Shown here: positions 40,520 to 52,274 of the stretch, piece by piece
Layout of the letters: every line of letters begins with the position of its first letter
How positions within the stretch are numbered: position 1 is the first letter of the stretch
Source of the DNA: an uncultured Chloroflexia bacterium
Lineage (GTDB): Bacteria; Chloroflexota; Limnocylindria; Limnocylindrales; CSP1-4
DNA length: 64,000 nt
Reading direction: 5' to 3'
NCBI GenBank assembly: GCA_963766735.1
Contig: CAVYBU010000017.1
Coordinates: 197,286-261,285, forward strand
Program-made: the position numbers and the translations under genes
Notes under the pieces: model-generated
Database searches by the model: none
What the model saw: only the letters and a program-made list of their open reading frames with translations
Told to the model about the DNA's origin: nothing

Positions 40520-42235
40520 CTAGAGCCCGGCGACCAGGCGCCCGAGCGCGCGCCGGAATGCGGGACTGGACACGCCCCGCCACGCGGGCCCGACGGTCCG
40601 TCGCAGGCGGGCGAGCTCGCGCTCACGGTCCACGAGGTAGCGGCCGATCGCGGCGCTCTCGCGCTCCGACAGCTCCCCGGCGTGTGCCACGAGGAAGGTC
40701 CGGGCGAGCCCTGCCGCAACGTCCGCGTCATGCAGCCAGCCGAGGTGGTCCTGGAGGGCGACGACCTTCTCGATGACGGGGCCCGCGTCCCGCCCGAGTG
40801 CCTCGCGCACGAACTCCAGCGTGTAGCGCAGCCACTTGGCGGCGATGCGCAGGTCGTGGAGGGTTGTCACGTCTGCCCAGCGCATGACGGGCTCGTAGGC
40901 GCGGAGGTTCTCGTAGGCCGCCCACACGCGGGACGGCATGGTGTCGCGCACCCGGTGCGGCTGGACGGGGCCAACGGCGAGGGCACCGAGCCCCTCGGTC
41001 TGCAGGAACGCGACGTACCCGTCCACCCACCGGCGGAAGCGCTCCGAGTCGAGCTCCCTGACCAGCATGATGCGTGCAGCGTCGCGGTTCGTGCGCCAGC
41101 CGGCGACCAGCGGCTCGAAGGCGACGGCCTCGGCGGCGGGTTGGCGGCGGCGATAGGCCTCTGCGGCTTCGATGAGGACGTCCATGTCGCGGACCGCACC
41201 CAGGTCTGCGGCGATCTCCTTCAGGCGTCGGCGGTGCTTCCGCGTGAGGCTTGCGTCGAACGCGTCGCCGAACACCCGCCATGCCGCCCGCTGGCGCCGG
41301 GTGGCGACGCGCATCCCATGCAGCTCCTCGGCATCCTTGCCGGTTCGGGTGCCGGCCTCCCGCGCAATCATGCGGGCGAGGTGGAACCGCAGGACCTTGC
41401 GTCCCGCCTCCGCCAGGTGGTCGTCCGCCAGCACGCCCGGGGACTTCGGCACCACGATCCGCGGCATCTCGGGCTCGACGGGCCGTCCCTCGACCACGGG
41501 CTGCAGCTCCGCATCCGCCGCGTGCTCGGCTGCGCCGTTGCCGCCGTCCCCATTGTCGCCGTTGCCGCCATTGTCCTGGCCCTGGTCCCTGCGCAGCGCC
41601 TCGAGCGCTCGCTCGAGCTTTGATGTCTGTGCCGGCACCAGCTCCTCGACCTCGCTGAGCAGGTCCGCCAGGGGATCCAGCCCTGCCTCCTCGCCTTCCC
41701 GAAGCTCAAGCTCCAGCTCCGCGAACCGGCCCACGGTCCTACCCCCTGCCACGACCTCGACGTCGTCCACTGACACCTCGACCACGGCCCCATCGCGTCC
41801 GTAGAGCCGCTTGTGGCGAGTTTGCCGGATCGTGACGAGATCGACGAGGGCAATCTCGCCCGCGATCTCGACGACGGCGTCCCGCGCTGCCGAAGCGGGC
41901 CAGCTCCCGGCCCCGGTTGCCGGATCGGCCGGCCCTTCCAGCTCCTCGCGCCGGTGGACGGGCCCGCCCTCGTCCTCCCGGTGGAGGCCCTTGAGCGTGA
42001 TCACGGTGCGCGTGCCATCAGATCGGAGGCGACCGGCATACCCGGCCGCCGCCAGGGCGCCGTCGGGCGTATCGAGGTAGCGGTCTTCGTTGAGGACGGT
42101 GACCGCGGGCTCCAGGGCGGTGAATCCCGCGAGTTCCTCCGCCGCGATGAGCCGGTCTCCGGTCGCCACGTCGGTCATGCGGTACTTGAGCTCGACCTCG
42201 AGGGGGCGAGGCTGATCCGCGGCCGCCTTGGTCAT
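40520..42235 (-). CDS. CYTH + CHAD domain protein (polyphosphate-binding)
   Basis: CYTH: EVELKY, YLDTPD, REELE, ELELEL, SKLER. CHAD: LHGMRVATRRQR, LGAVRD.DV, LHDLRIAAK.LRY.LE, LQDHLG.LHD. Confidence 0.9.
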   Translation of the reverse strand: MTKAAADQPRPLEVELKYRMTDVATGDRLIAAEELAGFTALEPAVTVLNEDRYLDTPDGALAAAGYAGRLRSDGTRTVITLKGLHREDEGGPVHRREELEGPADPATGAGSWPASAARDAVVEIAGEIALVDLVTIRQTRHKRLYGRDGAVVEVSVDDVEVVAGGRTVGRFAELELELREGEEAGLDPLADLLSEVEELVPAQTSKLERALEALRRDQGQDNGGNGDNGDGGNGAAEHAADAELQPVVEGRPVEPEMPRIVVPKSPGVLADDHLAEAGRKVLRFHLARMIAREAGTRTGKDAEELHGMRVATRRQRAAWRVFGDAFDASLTRKHRRRLKEIAADLGAVRDMDVLIEAAEAYRRRQPAAEAVAFEPLVAGWRTNRDAARIMLVRELDSERFRRWVDGYVAFLQTEGLGALAVGPVQPHRVRDTMPSRVWAAYENLRAYEPVMRWADVTTLHDLRIAAKWLRYTLEFVREALGRDAGPVIEKVVALQDHLGWLHDADVAAGLARTFLVAHAGELSERESAAIGRYLVDRERELARLRRTVGPAWRGVSSPAFRRALGRLVAGL

Positions 42236-44403
42236 GCCCGGGGGTCCATCGAGCCCGCGCCCGACATCAGCCCATGGCTCGTATCAGTGGCTGTCGCGGC
42301 CGCGGACGCGTCGTCCTTGAGCATCGCGAACGTGTCCAGCGTGCCCTCGAGCGACCCGATCACCTCGGTGCGCCGCCAGGTTCCGTCCGGTCCCAGCTGC
42401 CACGAGCGACGGTCGTCGGCGAGCATCACCTCGATGATGCGCGCGAGCCTGGCGCACGCCTCGTTGTCCTCCACCGGCGTGACCACCTCGACCCGGCGGT
42501 CCAGGTTGCGCTCCATCAGGTCCGCCGACCCGATGTACCACTCGGCGCGGCCGGCATTGGCGAACATCCAGATCCGGGAGTGCTCCAGGAACTCGCCGAT
42601 GATCGAATGGACGCGGACGCGCTCCGATATCCCGGGCAGGCCGGGAAGCATGCAGCACGCACCCCTGACGATCAGGTCGATGTACACGCCGGCCTTCGCC
42701 GCCTCGTACAGGCTCTCGATCACCTGCGTGTCGACGAGCGAGTTGACCTTCAGGACGATCCTGGCGGGGTGACCCGCCCTGGCATTCGCCGCCTCGCGTT
42801 CGACGAGCTCGAGGAAGCGGGAGCGGAGCGTGATCGGGGCGACGAGCAAGCGCCGGAAGACGCGTTGTCGAGAGAGGCCAGTCAGCGTGTTGAACAGGTC
42901 CGTGACATCCGCGCCGAGCTCCTCCCGGCAGGAGAGGATCCCGAGGTCCACGTACAGGCGGGCTGTCTTGGAGTTGTAGTTGCCGGTGCCGATATGAACG
43001 TATCGGCGGAGGCCGCTGCCCTCGCGGCGGACGACCAGCGCCACCTTCGAATGCGTCTTGAGGCCGACGACGCCGTACACGACGTGGGCACCCGCCCGCT
43101 CCAGCTTGCGGGCCCAGATGATGTTGTTCGCCTCGTCGAAGCGGGCCTTGATCTCTACCAGGACCACGACCTGCTTGCCGCGTTCGGCGGCGCGCATCAG
43201 GGCGGCCACGATGGGCGAGTCGCCCGACGTCCGGTAGAGCGTCATCTTGATCGTGAGGACGTCGGGATCGTCCGCGGCCTGCGTGATGAACCGCTCCACG
43301 GACGCGGTGAACGACTCGTAGGGGTGGTGGACGAAGATGTCTCCCGCGCGCACCTGGGCGAAGATGTCGACGGGCTCACCATCCTCTGACGGAACCAGCC
43401 GGGGGGGAACCACGGGGACATGCGGGACCGCCTTGAGGTCCGGGCGGTCCAGGGCCGCCAGCTGCCACAGCGCGGTGAGATCCAGCATCCCGGCAACCTC
43501 GAAGCTGTCCTCCTCGCGCACGCCGATCCCCCTGAGCAGGATCTGGCGGGTGACCTCCGGCATGGAGCGCTCGAACTCGAGGCGCACGGCCTCGCCGAAG
43601 CGCCGGCGCCGGACCTCCTCCTCGATCGCGAGCAGCAGGTCGTCCGCCTCGTCCTCCTCGATCGTTATGTCCGCGTCGCGGGTGACGCGGAACAGGTGGG
43701 TCTCGAGGACCTCCATGCCCCGGAACAGCTCGTCCAGGTTGGCCTCGATCACCCGGTCCAGGAGCACGAACTTGTCCCGTTCCACCGCGAACAGGCGCGG
43801 GAGGCTGGGCGGGATCTTGACCCGGGCGAACCTGCTCTCGCCGGTCTCCGGGTCCCGCAGGCCGATGGCGATGGAGAGCGAGAGGGTGCTGATGTAGGGG
43901 AACGGGTGCCCGGGATCCACCGCCAGCGGTGTGAGGACCGGGAAGATCTCGTCGTGGAAGCGGCGCCGGAGCGTCTCGTGGTGCTCCGGGACCTGCTCGA
44001 AGTCCACGATCTCCACGCCCTCCGTCGCAAGCTCGGCGCGGATCGCGGTCCAGATGGACGAGTGCTCAGCGATGAGGTCCCGGACGCGAGCGCGGATGGC
44101 ATCCAGCTGCTGGGCGGGCGTCAGGTTGTCGGACGAGTGGCCGTGGGAGCCCGCCTGGTCCTGGCGCCGGAGGCCGGACACGCGGACCTGGAAGAACTCA
44201 TCGAGGTTGGATGCGAAGATCGCGAGGAACTTCACCCGCTCGAGAACCGGGTTCCGGGTGTCACTCGCCTCGTGGAGGACGCGCGCGTTGAAGTCGATCC
44301 ACGCCAACTCGCGGTTGAGGATCGGGCCCTTCTGGTCGCGCGAGGACCGGCGGCGGCTGCGGCCGGCGACGCGGGGTCCTGGTGCGGGGCGAACGGTGGT
44401 CAT
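42232..44403 (-). CDS. ppk1: Polyphosphate kinase 1
   Basis: NRELAWIDFNARVL, SNLDEFF.VRV, HHPYESF, KMTLYR, ARFDEANN, LKTHSK, GTGNYN, FLEHSR, SADLMERNLDRRVE; exact start uncertain (44403 or 44478). Confidence 0.95.
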   Translation of the reverse strand: MTTVRPAPGPRVAGRSRRRSSRDQKGPILNRELAWIDFNARVLHEASDTRNPVLERVKFLAIFASNLDEFFQVRVSGLRRQDQAGSHGHSSDNLTPAQQLDAIRARVRDLIAEHSSIWTAIRAELATEGVEIVDFEQVPEHHETLRRRFHDEIFPVLTPLAVDPGHPFPYISTLSLSIAIGLRDPETGESRFARVKIPPSLPRLFAVERDKFVLLDRVIEANLDELFRGMEVLETHLFRVTRDADITIEEDEADDLLLAIEEEVRRRRFGEAVRLEFERSMPEVTRQILLRGIGVREEDSFEVAGMLDLTALWQLAALDRPDLKAVPHVPVVPPRLVPSEDGEPVDIFAQVRAGDIFVHHPYESFTASVERFITQAADDPDVLTIKMTLYRTSGDSPIVAALMRAAERGKQVVVLVEIKARFDEANNIIWARKLERAGAHVVYGVVGLKTHSKVALVVRREGSGLRRYVHIGTGNYNSKTARLYVDLGILSCREELGADVTDLFNTLTGLSRQRVFRRLLVAPITLRSRFLELVEREAANARAGHPARIVLKVNSLVDTQVIESLYEAAKAGVYIDLIVRGACCMLPGLPGISERVRVHSIIGEFLEHSRIWMFANAGRAEWYIGSADLMERNLDRRVEVVTPVEDNEACARLARIIEVMLADDRRSWQLGPDGTWRRTEVIGSLEGTLDTFAMLKDDASAAATATDTSHGLMSGAGSMDPRA

Positions 44404-44583
44404 CGATCCTCTCGGCGGGTCGGGCACGAGGACCGGAGCGGCTTGAAGAGGAGGCGGCCTCGCCCGGTCAGGGTTCATGAGAATACCACCCGCTGTGCCG
44501 CGGACCCCCGGTTGGACCCCCGCCGCGTGCATTGGAACGAGGCCTGCCGGGGCCATCCCACAGGCCTCCTCTCACCCGGGACG

Positions 44584-48141: not shown

Positions 48142-49152
48142 CTACCGCGTCGGCGTGACGACGACCTTGTTGCCCTCACGCCGGCTGGCCGTCCGGAATG
48201 CGGAGTCGAAGTCGTCCAGGTCAAACACGCTGCTCACGACGGCTCCGACATCCACGTGCCCCGCCTGCACCAGGGCGATCGCACGCGGGTAGACGTGGAC
48301 CATCCGCCGTGAGAAGCGCAGGTCCAGGCCCTTCCGGCGCGCAACCGACGCCGAGATCGTCGAGTGATCGCCCGACGGGATCCCGGCCACGACGACCGTG
48401 CCCGCCGGTCGCGCGAGGTCGATGGCGGCGTCGATGGCGTCGTCGTCGCCCGCGATCTCGATCGCCGCGTCCACGCCGCGCCCGCCCGTCGCCTGCAGGA
48501 GGATGTCACGCTCGGCGCCGCCGTCCACGACGGCCGCGATCGCCCCCAACGTGGTCGCGGCCAGCACGCGGTGCCCGAGCCGGTCCGTGGCGACCACGGT
48601 CGTCGCGCCGGCGTTCAGGGCCAGCTGGATCAGCAGCAGCCCGATCGGACCACACCCGAACACGCCGACGGTGTCGCCGGGCCCCACCCGCGCAAGACGC
48701 AGCGCGTGGATCGCCACGCCCAGGGGTTCGAGCATGGCACCCGCAGCGTCGTCGATCGCGTCGGGGAGTGGGACGAGGTTGGCGAGCGGCCAGGCGATCA
48801 GCTCCCGCATTGCCCCGTCCGTGGTCGAATGGCCGAGGAACCGCACATCGGGGCAGAGGTGGCCTCGTCCGAGGTCGCACGTCTCGCAGGCGCCGCACGG
48901 GATTGACGGATCGATGGCGACGCGCTGTCCCGCCCGGGGTCCATCGGCGATCACGCCCGCCGCCTCGTGGCCCAGCACCAACGGCTGCGCCAGCGGGACG
49001 CCGCCGATGCCCGACTCGCCGTACCAGTGCAGGTCGGAGCCGCAGATGCCCACCGCGGTCACGCGTACCAGCGCCTCATCCGGGCGCGGAACCGGGGCGG
49101 GCTCGTCCGCCAGGCGGAGGTCGCCGGCAGCGTGGAGGCGGAGTGCCTTCAT
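48142..49152 (-). CDS. Zn-dependent (MDR) sugar-alcohol dehydrogenase, sorbitol/L-iditol DH-like
   Basis: GICGSDLH, LGHE, CGACETC..G..HLC, EPLGVA, GCGPIG. Confidence 0.9.
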   Translation of the reverse strand: MKALRLHAAGDLRLADEPAPVPRPDEALVRVTAVGICGSDLHWYGESGIGGVPLAQPLVLGHEAAGVIADGPRAGQRVAIDPSIPCGACETCDLGRGHLCPDVRFLGHSTTDGAMRELIAWPLANLVPLPDAIDDAAGAMLEPLGVAIHALRLARVGPGDTVGVFGCGPIGLLLIQLALNAGATTVVATDRLGHRVLAATTLGAIAAVVDGGAERDILLQATGGRGVDAAIEIAGDDDAIDAAIDLARPAGTVVVAGIPSGDHSTISASVARRKGLDLRFSRRMVHVYPRAIALVQAGHVDVGAVVSSVFDLDDFDSAFRTASRREGNKVVVTPTR

Positions 49153-49282
49153 CGAGCCGCCTCCCTTCCAGGTGTGTTCCTGCGCGCCGAATCCGATTGC
49201 GCTCCGCCACCGCACCCTGCGGCACCGGGTCGCCGCATGGTACGACGCGCCGAGGTCGCATCGAGGCTGGTGCGGGTGACGG

Positions 49283-50047
49283 TCAGTCCGTCGGGTCTTC
49301 CTCGAACGGGAGCCGGCGGAATAGCGCCAGGACGGGAGCGGTGCCGGAGGAGCCTTCGTCGGCAGGGTCCTTGGGGGGCTTCTCGGGCGTTGACTGCGTC
49401 GGGACGCCTTCTCCGGGCGCCGTCACGGCGATCGACCGCCACAGGGCGCTCCGCACGCCGGGCAGGTACGGGCTCGTCCGCCGTCTCGCGAGGATGCCCG
49501 CGATCCCCTGCGCGGCCACCGCGTCGTACAGGGCACGGCCCTCCCCGGCAATTGCCGGGACCATGACCACCTCGTCGCCCGGCCGCAGCATGCGTCGAAG
49601 GAGGCCCCGCCGCTTCTCGAGGGGCTGGTTCAGGAGCCAACGTCCGTCCAGGTGGAGCAGGTCGAACACGAGCAGTGCCGCCGGCCGCCCGCCCCGGCCT
49701 GCCAGCCGCTCTCGTAGCGCCTCGTCGTCGGCCCGCCCCCGCCCGTCCACGACGACCAGCTCGCCATCGAGCACCGCGGACCGCGCCGCGACGCGGACCG
49801 CCAGCCCGGCCAGCTCCGGGAGACGCCCGGCCAGGTCCCGACCGGCGCCATCGACCAGCCGCACCGCGCCGTCGCCGGCGTGCTCCGCGGGGTCGATGAA
49901 CGCGAGCACCCGGTGGCCGCCCCACGTCGGTTCGAACAGGAAGTCGGGGGAATCGAAGGGCTCGGGGTGGGGCGTGGGCCACATCGGCGCCAGGTCGCCG
50001 GCACGCGGGAGGGCCGGCTCGAGCCGGAGGGAGAGCTGCTCGGCCAT
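49283..50047 (-). CDS. ATP-dependent DNA ligase (LigC/LigD-type) adenylation-domain homologue lacking catalytic residues and OB domain
   Basis: PM...PFDSPDFLFEP, VLDGELV, VFDLLHLDG, PLEKRR, SPYLPG.RS..W scaffold retained; KxDG reads TWGG. Confidence 0.8.
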   Translation of the reverse strand: MAEQLSLRLEPALPRAGDLAPMWPTPHPEPFDSPDFLFEPTWGGHRVLAFIDPAEHAGDGAVRLVDGAGRDLAGRLPELAGLAVRVAARSAVLDGELVVVDGRGRADDEALRERLAGRGGRPAALLVFDLLHLDGRWLLNQPLEKRRGLLRRMLRPGDEVVMVPAIAGEGRALYDAVAAQGIAGILARRRTSPYLPGVRSALWRSIAVTAPGEGVPTQSTPEKPPKDPADEGSSGTAPVLALFRRLPFEEDPTD

Positions 50048-50147
50048 CGCCCCCCGATGGTAGCCCCTGCACCAGGGCTAGACTGCGGGCAACGCCCCCG
50101 TCCGCCCTACCCGCGGACGCCCACCGAGCCCTCCGGGAGGATGTCCC

Positions 50148-52274
50148 TTGCCCCGAGCCGCACTCCCCGACGACATCTATCGCCTCCAGGTGCCGTTCGA
50201 GCCCCGCCTCTCCCCCGACGGTCGGACAGTTGCGTTCACCGTCAAGCGGAGCGCCGTCGGGTTGGACGGGTACCGCGATTCGATCTGGACGGCGCCGGTG
50301 GACGGGTCGTGCGATGCCCGCCGGGTGACGCTCGGCGCACGGAGCGACAGGCATCCGCGGTTTGCGCCGGACGGCCGGACCCTCGCCTTCCTTTCGGACC
50401 GCCGGCTGCTGGTGGAGGAGGAGCCGGAGCGGCCGAAGGAGGCCAATGAGCGCGAGGATGCGGTCCAGGTCCACCTGCTGCCGCTCGACGGCGGGGAAGC
50501 GCGGCGGTTGACGGACCTCCCGCGTGGGGTGATCGAGTTCGCCTGGTCCCCCGATGGGCGCACGCTCGCCGTCCTGACCTCGTCCATGGGGGCGACGGCC
50601 GAGGCCGATCGGAAGCAGCGCCGCCGGCCCGCGAAGCCGAAGCCCGGCGAGCCCCCGCTGTCCGACTACCGGTACCTCGACAAGCTGGGCTACCAGTACA
50701 ACGGCGCCGGATTCATCGACGACCGGGACGCCCACCTGTGGCTGGTGGACGTGGCAACAGCGGAGGCTCGCCCGCTCGTGGTCGGACCCACGCCCGAGGC
50801 TGCGCCCGCGTGGTCTCCGGACGGAGCGCGGATCGCGTTCGCGGCCAACCGGCGGCGGGACCCGGACCTCGCGCACCGCTCAATGGTGTTCGTGGTCGAG
50901 GTGGCGACGGGCTCGGTGACGCCCGTGGCATCCGGCGACGACGCGCTGTTCCGCTCGCCGGCCTGGACGCGGGATGGGTCCTCGATCGTGGCGATCGGCG
51001 ACCAATTCCCGCGGGGCGGGTACCGCACGGGTATCTGGCGATTCGCGGCGGACGGGTCGGACGCCCGGACCGGTGGCGGGACGGACCTGCTGGCGACGAG
51101 CGAGCTACAGCCGGACGCGGGCATGAACAGCGACGTGACGTTGGGCGAGGACGCCCGCCTCGCGATGTCCTCGGACGGGGCCTCCGTCCTGTTCACCGCA
51201 CCGGTGGATGGGAGCTGTGAGCTGTGGCGGGTCCCGCTGGCCGGCGGGGCGACGCCGGAGCGTCTGACGACGGACCGCCACTACCTCGCGGGCTGGGATG
51301 CGACTGCCGTGGACGGGCACGATGTTGTCGTGGCCGTGCGGTCCGCGGTCGCCGAGCTGCCCGAGATCGTGGCCTACGACGTGGCCCCGGGCGGCAGCAC
51401 AGACGCTCCTCGGAGGCTCACGTCCCTCAATGCGGAGCTGGCAGCCGAGATCGGGTTCATCGAGCCGGTCGAACGCCGCTGGACCAGTGATGGCTGGGAG
51501 ATCCAGGGTTGGCTGTACCCGGCGGGGGAGGGCCGGCAACCGCTGGCGCTCGAGATCCACGGCGGTCCGCACACGCTCTACGGGTGGTCGCCCAACCTGG
51601 AATGGCAGGTCCTCGCGGGGGCGGGCGTGTCCGTGCTCGGGTGCAACCCCCGCGGTTCCGAGGGTTACGGCGAGGCTTTCAACCGGGCGAACCTCGGGGA
51701 CTGGGGTGACGGCCCGATGGCGGATGTGATGGCAGGCGTGGACGGGCTCATCGCCGACGGCCTGGCCGACCCGGACCGGCTCGGAGTCACCGGCGGCTCC
51801 TACGGCGGCTACCTGACGAACTGGATCGTGGGCAAGACCGACCGGTTCATGGCCGCCGTCACCTGCCGCTCCGTGGCGGACATGGGGATGCTGTTCATGA
51901 CCGGCGACATCTCCGGAGGCGAATGGGCGCAGATGGAGTTCGGGCGTTCGCCGTGGGAGGACCCGGCCTACTTCGCTTCGATCTCGCCGATCTCGCTGGC
52001 CGCGAACGTCCACACGCCGCTGCTCATCCAGCACGCGGAGCGGGATCTCCGCTGCACCGTCGGTCAAGCGGAGGCGCTGTTCACGGTGCTCCGGACCCTC
52101 AAGCGGCCAGTGCGGTTCATGCGCGTGCCCGACGAGAGCCACGAGCTGACGCGCAGCGGTTCGCCGTTCCGCCGTGCGGAGAACCTGGTCCAGGTCCGCG
52201 ACTGGTTCGTGCACTTCCTGGTGCGCGGCTCGAAGCGGATGCCTGCGCCGCCGAAGATCCGAGCCGGGCGTTAG
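50148..52274 (+). CDS. S9 family peptidase (acylaminoacyl peptidase-like) with TolB-like propeller
   Basis: WSPDG repeats, IHGGPH, NPRGS.GYG, GGSYGG, D.RC, ESH. Confidence 0.9.
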   Translation: MPRAALPDDIYRLQVPFEPRLSPDGRTVAFTVKRSAVGLDGYRDSIWTAPVDGSCDARRVTLGARSDRHPRFAPDGRTLAFLSDRRLLVEEEPERPKEANEREDAVQVHLLPLDGGEARRLTDLPRGVIEFAWSPDGRTLAVLTSSMGATAEADRKQRRRPAKPKPGEPPLSDYRYLDKLGYQYNGAGFIDDRDAHLWLVDVATAEARPLVVGPTPEAAPAWSPDGARIAFAANRRRDPDLAHRSMVFVVEVATGSVTPVASGDDALFRSPAWTRDGSSIVAIGDQFPRGGYRTGIWRFAADGSDARTGGGTDLLATSELQPDAGMNSDVTLGEDARLAMSSDGASVLFTAPVDGSCELWRVPLAGGATPERLTTDRHYLAGWDATAVDGHDVVVAVRSAVAELPEIVAYDVAPGGSTDAPRRLTSLNAELAAEIGFIEPVERRWTSDGWEIQGWLYPAGEGRQPLALEIHGGPHTLYGWSPNLEWQVLAGAGVSVLGCNPRGSEGYGEAFNRANLGDWGDGPMADVMAGVDGLIADGLADPDRLGVTGGSYGGYLTNWIVGKTDRFMAAVTCRSVADMGMLFMTGDISGGEWAQMEFGRSPWEDPAYFASISPISLAANVHTPLLIQHAERDLRCTVGQAEALFTVLRTLKRPVRFMRVPDESHELTRSGSPFRRAENLVQVRDWFVHFLVRGSKRMPAPPKIRAGR

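Follow-up and report, generated by a model that had tools for sequence, protein, structure and literature searches.

A probable pseudo-enzyme of the LigD ligase family in Chloroflexota, a candidate clamp-tethered adaptor of Ku/LigD end joining

A 64-kb stretch of DNA from an uncultured Chloroflexia bacterium (64,000 nucleotides of contig CAVYBU010000017.1, assembly GCA_963766735.1; the whole stretch is called the window below) carries a gene for a small ligase-like protein that has the fold of the LigD ligase domain and has lost the catalytic residues of that domain. Its product is very probably a pseudo-enzyme. Bacterial end joining is usually described as a two-part Ku/LigD system. We propose that the ligase-like protein is a stand-alone LigD-type adenylation domain that would be unable to form lysyl-AMP; that it would descend from small ligases encoded directly behind Ku in Chloroflexota, with both terminal peptides retained; that its C-terminal PVLALFRRLPF would dock a second partner; and that, without catalysis and while tethered to the clamp, it would serve Ku/LigD end joining as an adaptor or a regulator, in the manner of the hub protein ImuB. 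Whether it would recruit or restrain the machinery is a step that we infer. Taken as a whole, this reading is in our judgement about evenly poised between right and wrong. An earlier note on this DNA, written from the letters alone, had described an intact 254-aa open reading frame (ORF) at this place; this was borne out, and the coding strand is minus (Table 1).

A LigD-type adenylation domain that has lost its catalytic residues

Residues 33-203 of the ligase-like protein match the adenylation-domain family PF01068 (E 1.6e-15; 57.8 bits against a cut-off of 26.2). Twelve NCBIfam ligase models also match, all 12 under their curated cut-offs, the best being TIGR02779, the NHEJ (non-homologous end joining) ligase model, with 113.3 bits against 227.75. 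The best solved relatives by sequence are the ligase (LIG) domains of Mycobacterium tuberculosis LigD (1vs0, 6nhx and 6nhz; E 3e-21). An AlphaFold2 (AF2) model built on an alignment of 45 family sequences reached a predicted local distance difference test score (pLDDT) of 88 and a predicted template modelling score (pTM) of 0.84, with pLDDT above 90 at residues 20-210; residues 1-20 have no secondary structure and a pLDDT of 61-79. A Foldseek search with this model ranked 6nhx, 1vs0 and 6nhz first (E 5e-15; 32-33% identity); adenylation domains of archaeal and human ligases came next. The domain had been assigned to the LigC/LigD type in the earlier note, and the PF01068 match, the residue alignment to 1vs0 and the Foldseek result agree with that assignment. 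The same note held that the oligonucleotide/oligosaccharide-binding (OB) fold is absent, and indeed PF04679 gives no match in the protein at E values up to 1, and the chain stops 50 residues past motif V, after a low-confidence linker that differs in length and sequence across alignments and one short helix.

Substitutions were read from the residue alignment to 1vs0 and from a profile alignment of 271 sequences. In motif I, Thr41 stands in place of the adenylated Lys and Gly43 in place of the Asp. In motif Ia, RSRSG of 1vs0 is replaced by VDGAG, so that Ser-Arg becomes Asp-Gly, and motifs IV and V are degenerate as well (Table 1). The stretches LDGE, FDLL and SPYLPGVRS are retained. Both alignments thus confirm, motif by motif, the selective pattern noticed earlier, in which motifs I, Ia, IV and V are replaced while DGE, FDLL and SPYxPGxRS are kept. 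With the Lys of motif I, the lysines of motif V, the Glu and Lys of motif IV and the OB domain all gone, we conclude that the protein cannot form lysyl-AMP. Compared with the LIG domain of M. tuberculosis LigD (Rv0938; 1VS0, 6NHX, 6NHZ; TIGR02779), it has the same adenylation fold at 32-33% identity and retains motifs III and IIIa and the SPYxPGxRS stretch, and its nearest relatives are encoded next to Ku, but the protein is without the motif-I Lys and Asp, the motif-V lysines and the OB domain, and its motif IV is altered. It differs further in carrying putative docking peptides on flexible N- and C-terminal ends.

The losses are shared across a large family. A word-indexed search, in which 8000 candidates were scored, gave 2276 matches at E up to 0.001. 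The best 120 of these are 245-298 aa long and 69-91% identical to the query, and belong, where named, to Chloroflexi or Candidatus Limnocylindrales metagenome-assembled genomes; their sources label homologues as ‘ATP-dependent DNA ligase’ or ‘bifunctional NHEJ protein LigD’. In the close set formed by the query and these 120 homologues, no sequence has Lys at the motif-I position (0/121): 117 have Thr, a count that includes P0093, whose motif begins with Tyr, and four have Ser. The degenerate motif IV, GIAGxxAR, is kept in 117 of the 121 and the degenerate motif V, LW[RH][SA]I, in 115. An exhaustive profile search of 1.84 billion representatives at 50% identity yielded 15,686 matches at E up to 0.001, 133 of them at E up to 1e-30. 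Among the best 150 matches, 127 cover motif I, 61 without and 66 with Lys; the top 33 scorers among those 127 representatives are all non-Lys, and the first Lys-bearing ligase is P0172. In the wide family this position is free to change, with W, S, R, T, L, D, V and others recorded there, and the flanking W-G-G-x-R is kept, as one would expect once the nucleophile has become dispensable. His45 was considered as a substitute nucleophile and rejected, being fixed in the close family only (120/121) and variable in the wide family.

Selection on the gene was measured as the pooled Nei-Gojobori ratio of nonsynonymous to synonymous substitution (dN/dS) over 46 complete coding sequences (CDS) and 996 of their 1035 pairs; five other CDS of unsuitable length or with internal stops were excluded, as were 39 pairs whose proportion of synonymous differences (pS) exceeded 0.55. 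The whole gene gave 0.27, the core (residues 21-210) 0.21, the linker (211-234) 0.84 and the C-terminal peptide (235-248) 0.054, the lowest value of any region. The lost lysine is therefore a family-wide substitution, kept as Lys in 0/121, in a gene with dN/dS well below 1 and a confident fold prediction, as the earlier note’s claim of a pseudo-enzyme, as opposed to decay, would have it. A strain-specific, decaying ligase remnant would be compatible with the six of 53 related loci at which the homologue is split over reading frames, through assembly error or local decay. Against it stand the intact ORF, the substitutions and end peptides shared by 121/121 homologues, the ratios of 0.27 for the gene and 0.054 for its C-terminal peptide, and a conserved promoter block; dN/dS and the 0/121 count refute strain-specific decay, which is hardly conceivable for this gene. 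Homologue matches in two or more frames, that is frameshifts, were seen at loci L043, L049, L050, L052, L058 and L059.

Nucleotide, or a DNA end that carries an adenylate, might nevertheless still be bound by a pseudo-ligase. It would then serve either as a sensor or as an unconventional enzyme that does without a lysyl-AMP step and handles, for example, 5'-adenylated ends from aborted ligation. The pocket-forming fold is predicted with high confidence, and the adenosine-pocket residues are kept in the subfamily: the invariant Arg46 of motif I, Asp94 and Glu96 of motif III, and Phe128 and Asp129 of motif IIIa. However, every phosphate-contacting lysine is gone, as is the motif-I Asp, and His45 beside the lost lysine varies in the wide family. 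Moreover, the Ku-linked sister subfamily described below replaces Glu96 and Phe128 (VLDGTLL, VASDLL), so nucleotide binding is not a family-wide constraint. We consider such a retained activity improbable.

Conserved terminal peptides and predicted docking to the sliding clamp

The N-terminus of the ligase-like protein is of the type that binds the beta clamp. In an alignment of 39 sequences E3, Q4 and L5 never vary and L9 shows conservation of 90% or more, and the pattern [ED]QL[SDNT][LFI]x[LIMF] occurs in 121/121 close sequences. Among distant members, [EDNG]QLxLxx is found in 17/17 full-length rows of the alignment, two further, N-terminally short rows being without the region; both end peptides persist in such members at 33-50% identity. 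The likeness of MAEQLSLRL to a clamp motif, pointed out before, is therefore matched by conservation of QLSL across the wide family.

Three published or well-known cases offer comparisons. Eukaryotic DNA ligase I is ATP-dependent and is tethered to the sliding clamp, proliferating cell nuclear antigen (PCNA), by a short N-terminal PCNA-interacting-protein (PIP) box. The likeness is that of an ATP-dependent ligase family member tethered to a sliding clamp by an N-terminal peptide; ligase I, in contrast, is active and has a DNA-binding domain (DBD) and OB domain, and both the clamp (PCNA) and the motif (PIP box) differ. Hda carries the published clamp motif QLSLPL, a hexapeptide that is almost identical and likewise begins within a few residues of the N-terminus, and the cleft of DnaN contacted in our model matches; Hda is, however, an AAA+ protein acting on DnaA and has no homology to the ligase-like protein outside the peptide. 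ImuB is a catalytically inactive hub and adaptor with the clamp motif QLPLWG (PMC10421592). Both ImuB and the ligase-like protein are dead copies of DNA-repair enzymes with a clamp-type motif, but fold and pathway are unrelated, and the clamp and hub role is experimentally supported for ImuB and predicted here. The comparison with ImuB drawn in the earlier note is accordingly apt as a concept, that of a dead enzyme as a clamp-bound hub.

Complex prediction places this peptide on the clamp. The protein was modelled in three runs with a monomer of DnaN from its own genome (371 aa; alignment of 30 relatives), giving an interaction prediction score from aligned errors (ipSAE) of 0.62, 0.61 and 0.61, against 0.02 for the best of three controls. 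The ipSAE mark is reached by 116 of 157 solved complexes and by two of 215 mismatched pairs, an approximate calibration, the input alignments being our own. Between runs at least 72% of the contacts are shared, and the partner's pLDDT is 80 or more. Only residues 1-11 make contacts with confidence; these involve positions 155, 172, 174-177, 244, 246 and 249 of the middle domain of DnaN and positions 280, 282, 321, 323, 347, 349, 363 and 365-370 of its C-terminal domain, that is, the expected cleft between domains II and III. The modelling proposed in the earlier note thus puts the N-terminus in the peptide cleft at a score of 0.61 against 0.02. The model supports binding, as distinct from showing it: clamp docking is a prediction, and the N-terminal peptide is clamp-motif-like in its context. 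We think it somewhat more probable than not that the N-terminus would bind the clamp.

The opposite end is the most constrained element of the protein. As had been described, the chain closes, after a flexible linker, with a hydrophobic LALFRRLPF peptide, and the C-terminus APVLALFRRLPF agrees with that description. The pattern P[VI]xAx[FI]R[RK]LP[FLI], here PVLALFRRLPF, occurs in 121/121 close sequences, distant members have the consensus PxLAL[IF]xRLP[LF], and AF2 predicts a helix at residues 237-245 with a pLDDT of 70-78. C-termini of a kindred type occur in Ku-operon ligases; among 2715 long ORFs of the own genome no other protein ends in a clamp-type or RLPF-type peptide. The constraint suggests a putative docking motif, more than a hydrophobic tail. 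The most plausible candidate partners are Ku, LigD or a second clamp pocket. The LigDs of this bacterial class, with phosphoesterase, ligase and polymerase domains (PE-LIG-POL; L121, L112-L120), were seen to end in ...GDLF..A....Q.LP[PAK][LFV], and an EIDLSAA-like segment lies just before the ligase domain in 7/10 LigDs (L112-L121). Some caution is in order, as both end elements may have belonged to the ligase module from early on.

One use of two such peptides would be a bivalent clamp blocker, in which QLSLRL and VLALF fill both pockets of one DnaN dimer; clamps would then be held or shielded in a way unconnected with end joining. The C-terminal peptide of this protein (VLALF), its wide-family form (VLALI) and that of the sister family (TLALIL) resemble the clamp motifs QLxLF and QLxLxL minus the Gln, and the N- and C-terminal peptides both sit on flexible ends. 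In the model, though, residues 1-11 alone touch DnaN confidently, one pocket being on offer, and the trailing RLP[LF] is conserved equally to xLxL[IF]; we know of no clamp motif that requires a trailing RLP[LF]. The Ku-operon ancestry described below also points to end joining, and a bivalent blocker appears unlikely to us.

Ku-linked relatives and the proposed role in end joining

To place the protein among its relatives, 401 Chloroflexota genomes were searched, and flanking DNA was fetched and annotated; the Ku linkage of the wide family was sampled in Chloroflexota genomes, the phylum to which most matches of known phylum belong. In a sister family of the same class (f3), the gene immediately downstream of Ku, and on its strand, encodes a dead homologue of 225-232 aa in 8/8 loci (L097-L101, L108-L110). 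These dead forms contain FEPWWPG[VAT]R, VLDGTLL and AWLRAP, have [EDN]QL[PSD]Lxx three residues past a GTG start and end in RPxLALIxRLP[LF]. In three further families (f23, f27 and f4) active ligases stand directly behind Ku in eight of nine loci (L090, L092-L096, L107 and L111; not L091). All of these active Ku-operon ligases keep KWDG, EG..AK, WLK.K and the OB domain (PF04679), and five of them, read from the called start, are 343-386 aa long. Those of f23 and f27 start DQLQIELE and end LTRFPF; those of f4 end RLVVLQSLRL or RLVLIHSLPF.

Such small Ku-operon ligases of other Chloroflexota are the closest active relatives of the ligase-like protein in the tree. They share with it an N-terminal start of the type DQLxIELE..RPM and a hydrophobic C-terminal tip, LTRFPF or LxxLxxLP[FL]; unlike the dead protein, they have KWDG, EG..AK, W-x-K-x-K and PF04679, and they lie directly behind Ku. 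Other architectures also occur. Family f8 has a K-to-D form (FSIDWDGMR) behind Ku (L106), and family f16 has K-to-R forms (FETRW[SN]GIR, FEVRWDCIR; L102-L105), both with a C-terminal region of OB length; no Ku was seen in the fetched stretches of the four f16 loci. The proteins of L102-L106 have N-termini of the QLxLxL type and RPxLxxLxxLPL near the C-terminus. The existence of these longer forms means that the lysine has been lost in several architectures of the clade.

The tree, a maximum-likelihood tree of 76 adenylation domains, was made with a quick IQ-TREE run, with support from the Shimodaira-Hasegawa-like approximate likelihood ratio test (SH-aLRT) only, and leaves out one own-genome ligase whose domain cut failed. 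It places the ligase-like protein in a clade of 21 OB-less dead forms (SH-aLRT 96), among Ku-operon forms; the branches nearest to this clade are the Ku-operon dead forms, the K-to-D and K-to-R forms and two active Ku-operon ligases. Descent from Ku-linked ligases is thus seen in the tree, whose deeper forks (support 83-85) are too weak for a count of separate losses of the lysine.

Co-occurrence points the same way. Ku was found in 113/401 genomes and LigD-type matches in 112/401, with identical per-family tallies; these counts include three unpublished genomes (G038, G173 and G272), on which no specific claim rests. Of 23 genomes sampled in the own family of the bacterium, 21 have both Ku and LigD-type matches, and the other two (G187 and G245) have neither a ligase-type match nor Ku. 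Co-occurrence had been put forward as a check in the earlier note; Ku is present in all 18 own-family genomes that carry a close dead homologue (best E at or below 1e-85). Being kin, these genomes are not independent. In the own genome, Ku and LigD lie on another contig, Ku being upstream, at a distance of roughly 1 kb, of a PE-LIG-POL LigD whose FEVKWDGYR is intact (L121, C30:280000-292000), and there are three other PF01068 genes and one Ku in all. Ku adjoins LigD in 4/7 own-family loci and in 0/3 sister-family loci, where it stands beside the dead ligase. From these relations we lean slightly towards a function tied to Ku/LigD end joining.

Ku-linked ancestry can also be read differently. 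The end peptides might dock Ku, LigD or both, not the clamp, so that a look-alike holds the ligase’s place on Ku, either as a structural third subunit or as a decoy that holds end joining back; motif likeness would then have produced a false-positive clamp prediction. Active ligases right behind Ku carry kindred end peptides and are without the polymerase (POL) domain by which other LigDs meet Ku, the sister-family dead form is itself behind Ku in 8/8 loci, and LigD C-termini in these genomes end similarly, in ...Q-x-LPP[LF]. In addition, the C-terminus of M. tuberculosis Ku is reported to contact residues of the LigD ligase domain (PMC13717202), so a ligase-domain shell could still be a partner of Ku. 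The LigD residues D522, K579 and L580 given there map to A88, G148 and L149 of the ligase-like protein, which is uninformative. Against docking to Ku or LigD alone, the N-terminal peptide closely fits the clamp motifs QLSLPL of Hda and QLPLWG of ImuB (the latter from PMC10421592), the score in the DnaN cleft is 0.61 against 0.02 for the best control, and the complex was modelled with DnaN only, so that Ku binding has no direct support. We regard this alternative as a minor contender.

Several observations weigh against the proposal of a clamp-tethered adaptor. On the side of end joining, the link to Ku is drawn in this lineage from relatives and from co-occurrence in kindred genomes, which are not independent. 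Ku is absent from the 64-kb window and from 53 related loci (959,794 bases), and the metabolic and transport genes that make up the own-lineage neighbourhood give no function. As to expression, a single 194-nt contig from one sediment metatranscriptome run (X20), about 95% identical to window positions 49648-49841, may be DNA carry-over or come from a relative, and is too weak for a claim of transcription. On the side of the clamp, solved clamp-peptide complexes are abundant, and the docking score may reflect likeness alone; the model held a single DnaN monomer, with no second pocket for which the C-terminal peptide could compete. Codons 1-12 have a dN/dS of 0.73 and a proportion of nonsynonymous differences (pN) of 0.124, no lower than the 0.143 of the core, and only E3, Q4, L5 and L9 are fixed among them. 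The LigDs of these genomes have a similar, Q-less segment, EIDLSAA, just before the ligase domain, and the N-terminal element may be an old ligase-module feature with another role. Finally, the nick-sensor idea of the earlier note is without support: a DNA-binding role of the protein is putative, and strong binding to nicks is hard to square with an OB domain and a motif-Ia Ser-Arg that are both gone.

Gene setting and meaning of the family

The gene has the properties of a genuine one: its GC content by codon position is 0.83/0.54/0.89, typical of genuine genes in this window of 71% GC. Immediately upstream lies a conserved block, GGGCTACCATCG, with a -10-like TACCAT (Table 1). Across 49 aligned upstream regions the block ends 6 nt before the ATG and is flanked by variable sequence, which makes the own -10 element that the earlier note had seen plausible. 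Its in-frame read-through explains the spurious ‘GYHRxAM’ N-terminal extension of over-called homologues. To judge from this arrangement, the block supports a very short leader or near-leaderless mRNA with Met1 as the true start, which would put the QL motif at the very N-terminus. In the first 12 codons (50012-50047) pS is 0.16, against 0.47 elsewhere in the gene; together with the conserved block, this suggests constraint at the nucleotide level, for example from a near-leaderless start or an operator. On the other strand, TAGACT (50079-50084, plus strand) is conserved as AGTCTA in most of the 49 upstream regions and is likely to be the -10 element of the divergent S9 peptidase gene. In the window, an imperfect inverted repeat, TAGCCC-N7-GGGGCTA, joins the TAGACT element with the promoter block of the ligase-like gene.

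Table 1 Features of the ligase-like gene and its surroundings in the window
Feature	Position	Strand	Basis or remark
Complete CDS, dead ligase-like protein (254 aa, stop codon included)	49283..50047	-	ORF translation, codon-position GC, PF01068
N-terminal peptide MAEQLSLRLEP, residues 1-11, beta-clamp-binding type	50015..50047	-	Q4-L5-S6-L7-R8-L9 fits QLxLxL
Degenerate LigD-type nucleotidyltransferase (adenylation) domain, residues 20-210	49418..49990	-	AF2, Foldseek, sequence matches
Degenerate motif I FEPTWGGHR, residues 38-46	49910..49936	-	1vs0 has FEGKWDGYR
Degenerate motif IV GIAGILARRR, residues 181-190	49478..49507	-	EGVIAK replaced by AGILAR
Degenerate motif V LWRSIA, residues 202-207	49427..49444	-	Both W-x-K-x-K lysines gone
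Linker in place of OB domain, residues 211-235, variable, probably disordered	49343..49417	-	pLDDT ~50; dN/dS 0.84
C-terminal peptide TAPVLALFRRLPF, residues 236-248, putative docking, predicted short helix	49304..49342	-	dN/dS 0.054; 121/121
Conserved upstream block GGGCTACCATCG with -10-like TACCAT (50057-50062), ending 9 nt before ATG	50055..50066	-	49 aligned upstream regions
S9 peptidase gene, divergent	50148-52274
Zn-dependent alcohol dehydrogenase, between ligase-like gene and ABC transporter	48142-49215	-
CYTH-CHAD protein and polyphosphate kinase 1, adjoining polyphosphate-metabolism pair	40520-44556	-

Around the gene, the window holds the divergent S9 peptidase, a Zn-dehydrogenase, an ABC transporter, YbjQ, polyphosphate kinase and CHAD/CYTH genes. 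The order S9 peptidase, ligase-like gene, ABC transporter recurs in the 53 related loci, which come from GTDB genomes, and by ORF calls the S9 peptidase is immediately upstream in 28 of them. The Zn-dehydrogenase cluster is not among the recurrent neighbours and looks like a local insertion in conserved synteny. CYTH genes also lie near the pair of Ku and dead ligase in sister-family loci L099 and L100. The window contains no other ligase, and the earlier note’s remark that neither Ku nor an active LigD is adjacent was correct for its 64 kb. Membership of a defence system was considered and rejected, as none of the PADLOC defence-system models matches the protein at E up to 0.01; the PHROGs match is weak and to a ligase (E 1e-4). 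DNA runs from sediment, estuary and aquatic metagenomes contain parts of the stretch, too weakly for a claim about habitat.

In the literature, including the available parts of a structural review of LigD (PMC8656161) and of a metagenomic survey of repair enzymes (PMC10140301), we found no description of a lysine-less LigD-type domain and no clamp link for bacterial NHEJ ligases; the search was not exhaustive. By analogy, the ligase-like protein may be viewed as a LigD-ligase-family pseudo-enzyme built on the principle of a hub that binds the clamp. A more tentative picture, and one we think doubtful as it stands, is that of a third, non-catalytic part of Chloroflexota end joining, in which a dead ligase would sit on the clamp by its N-terminus and hold Ku/LigD by its C-terminus. 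If true, such a third part would tie break repair to clamps that stay behind on DNA, or let those clamps gate it. In this picture the small ancestral Ku-operon ligases would have been clamp-tethered too, a bacterial counterpart of the link between ligase I and PCNA.

The family is large, with 2276 matches among 8000 candidates and about 60 non-Lys representatives in the best 150, and is therefore a recurrent solution, not an oddity. For annotation, homologues labelled ligase or LigD could not be such enzymes, as far as their residues tell. If the proposal is right, it would add an accessory factor to bacterial non-homologous end joining and give a first hint of end joining wired to the replication clamp. 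The ligase-like protein would then be a clean bacterial case of a repair enzyme turned scaffold, like ImuB.

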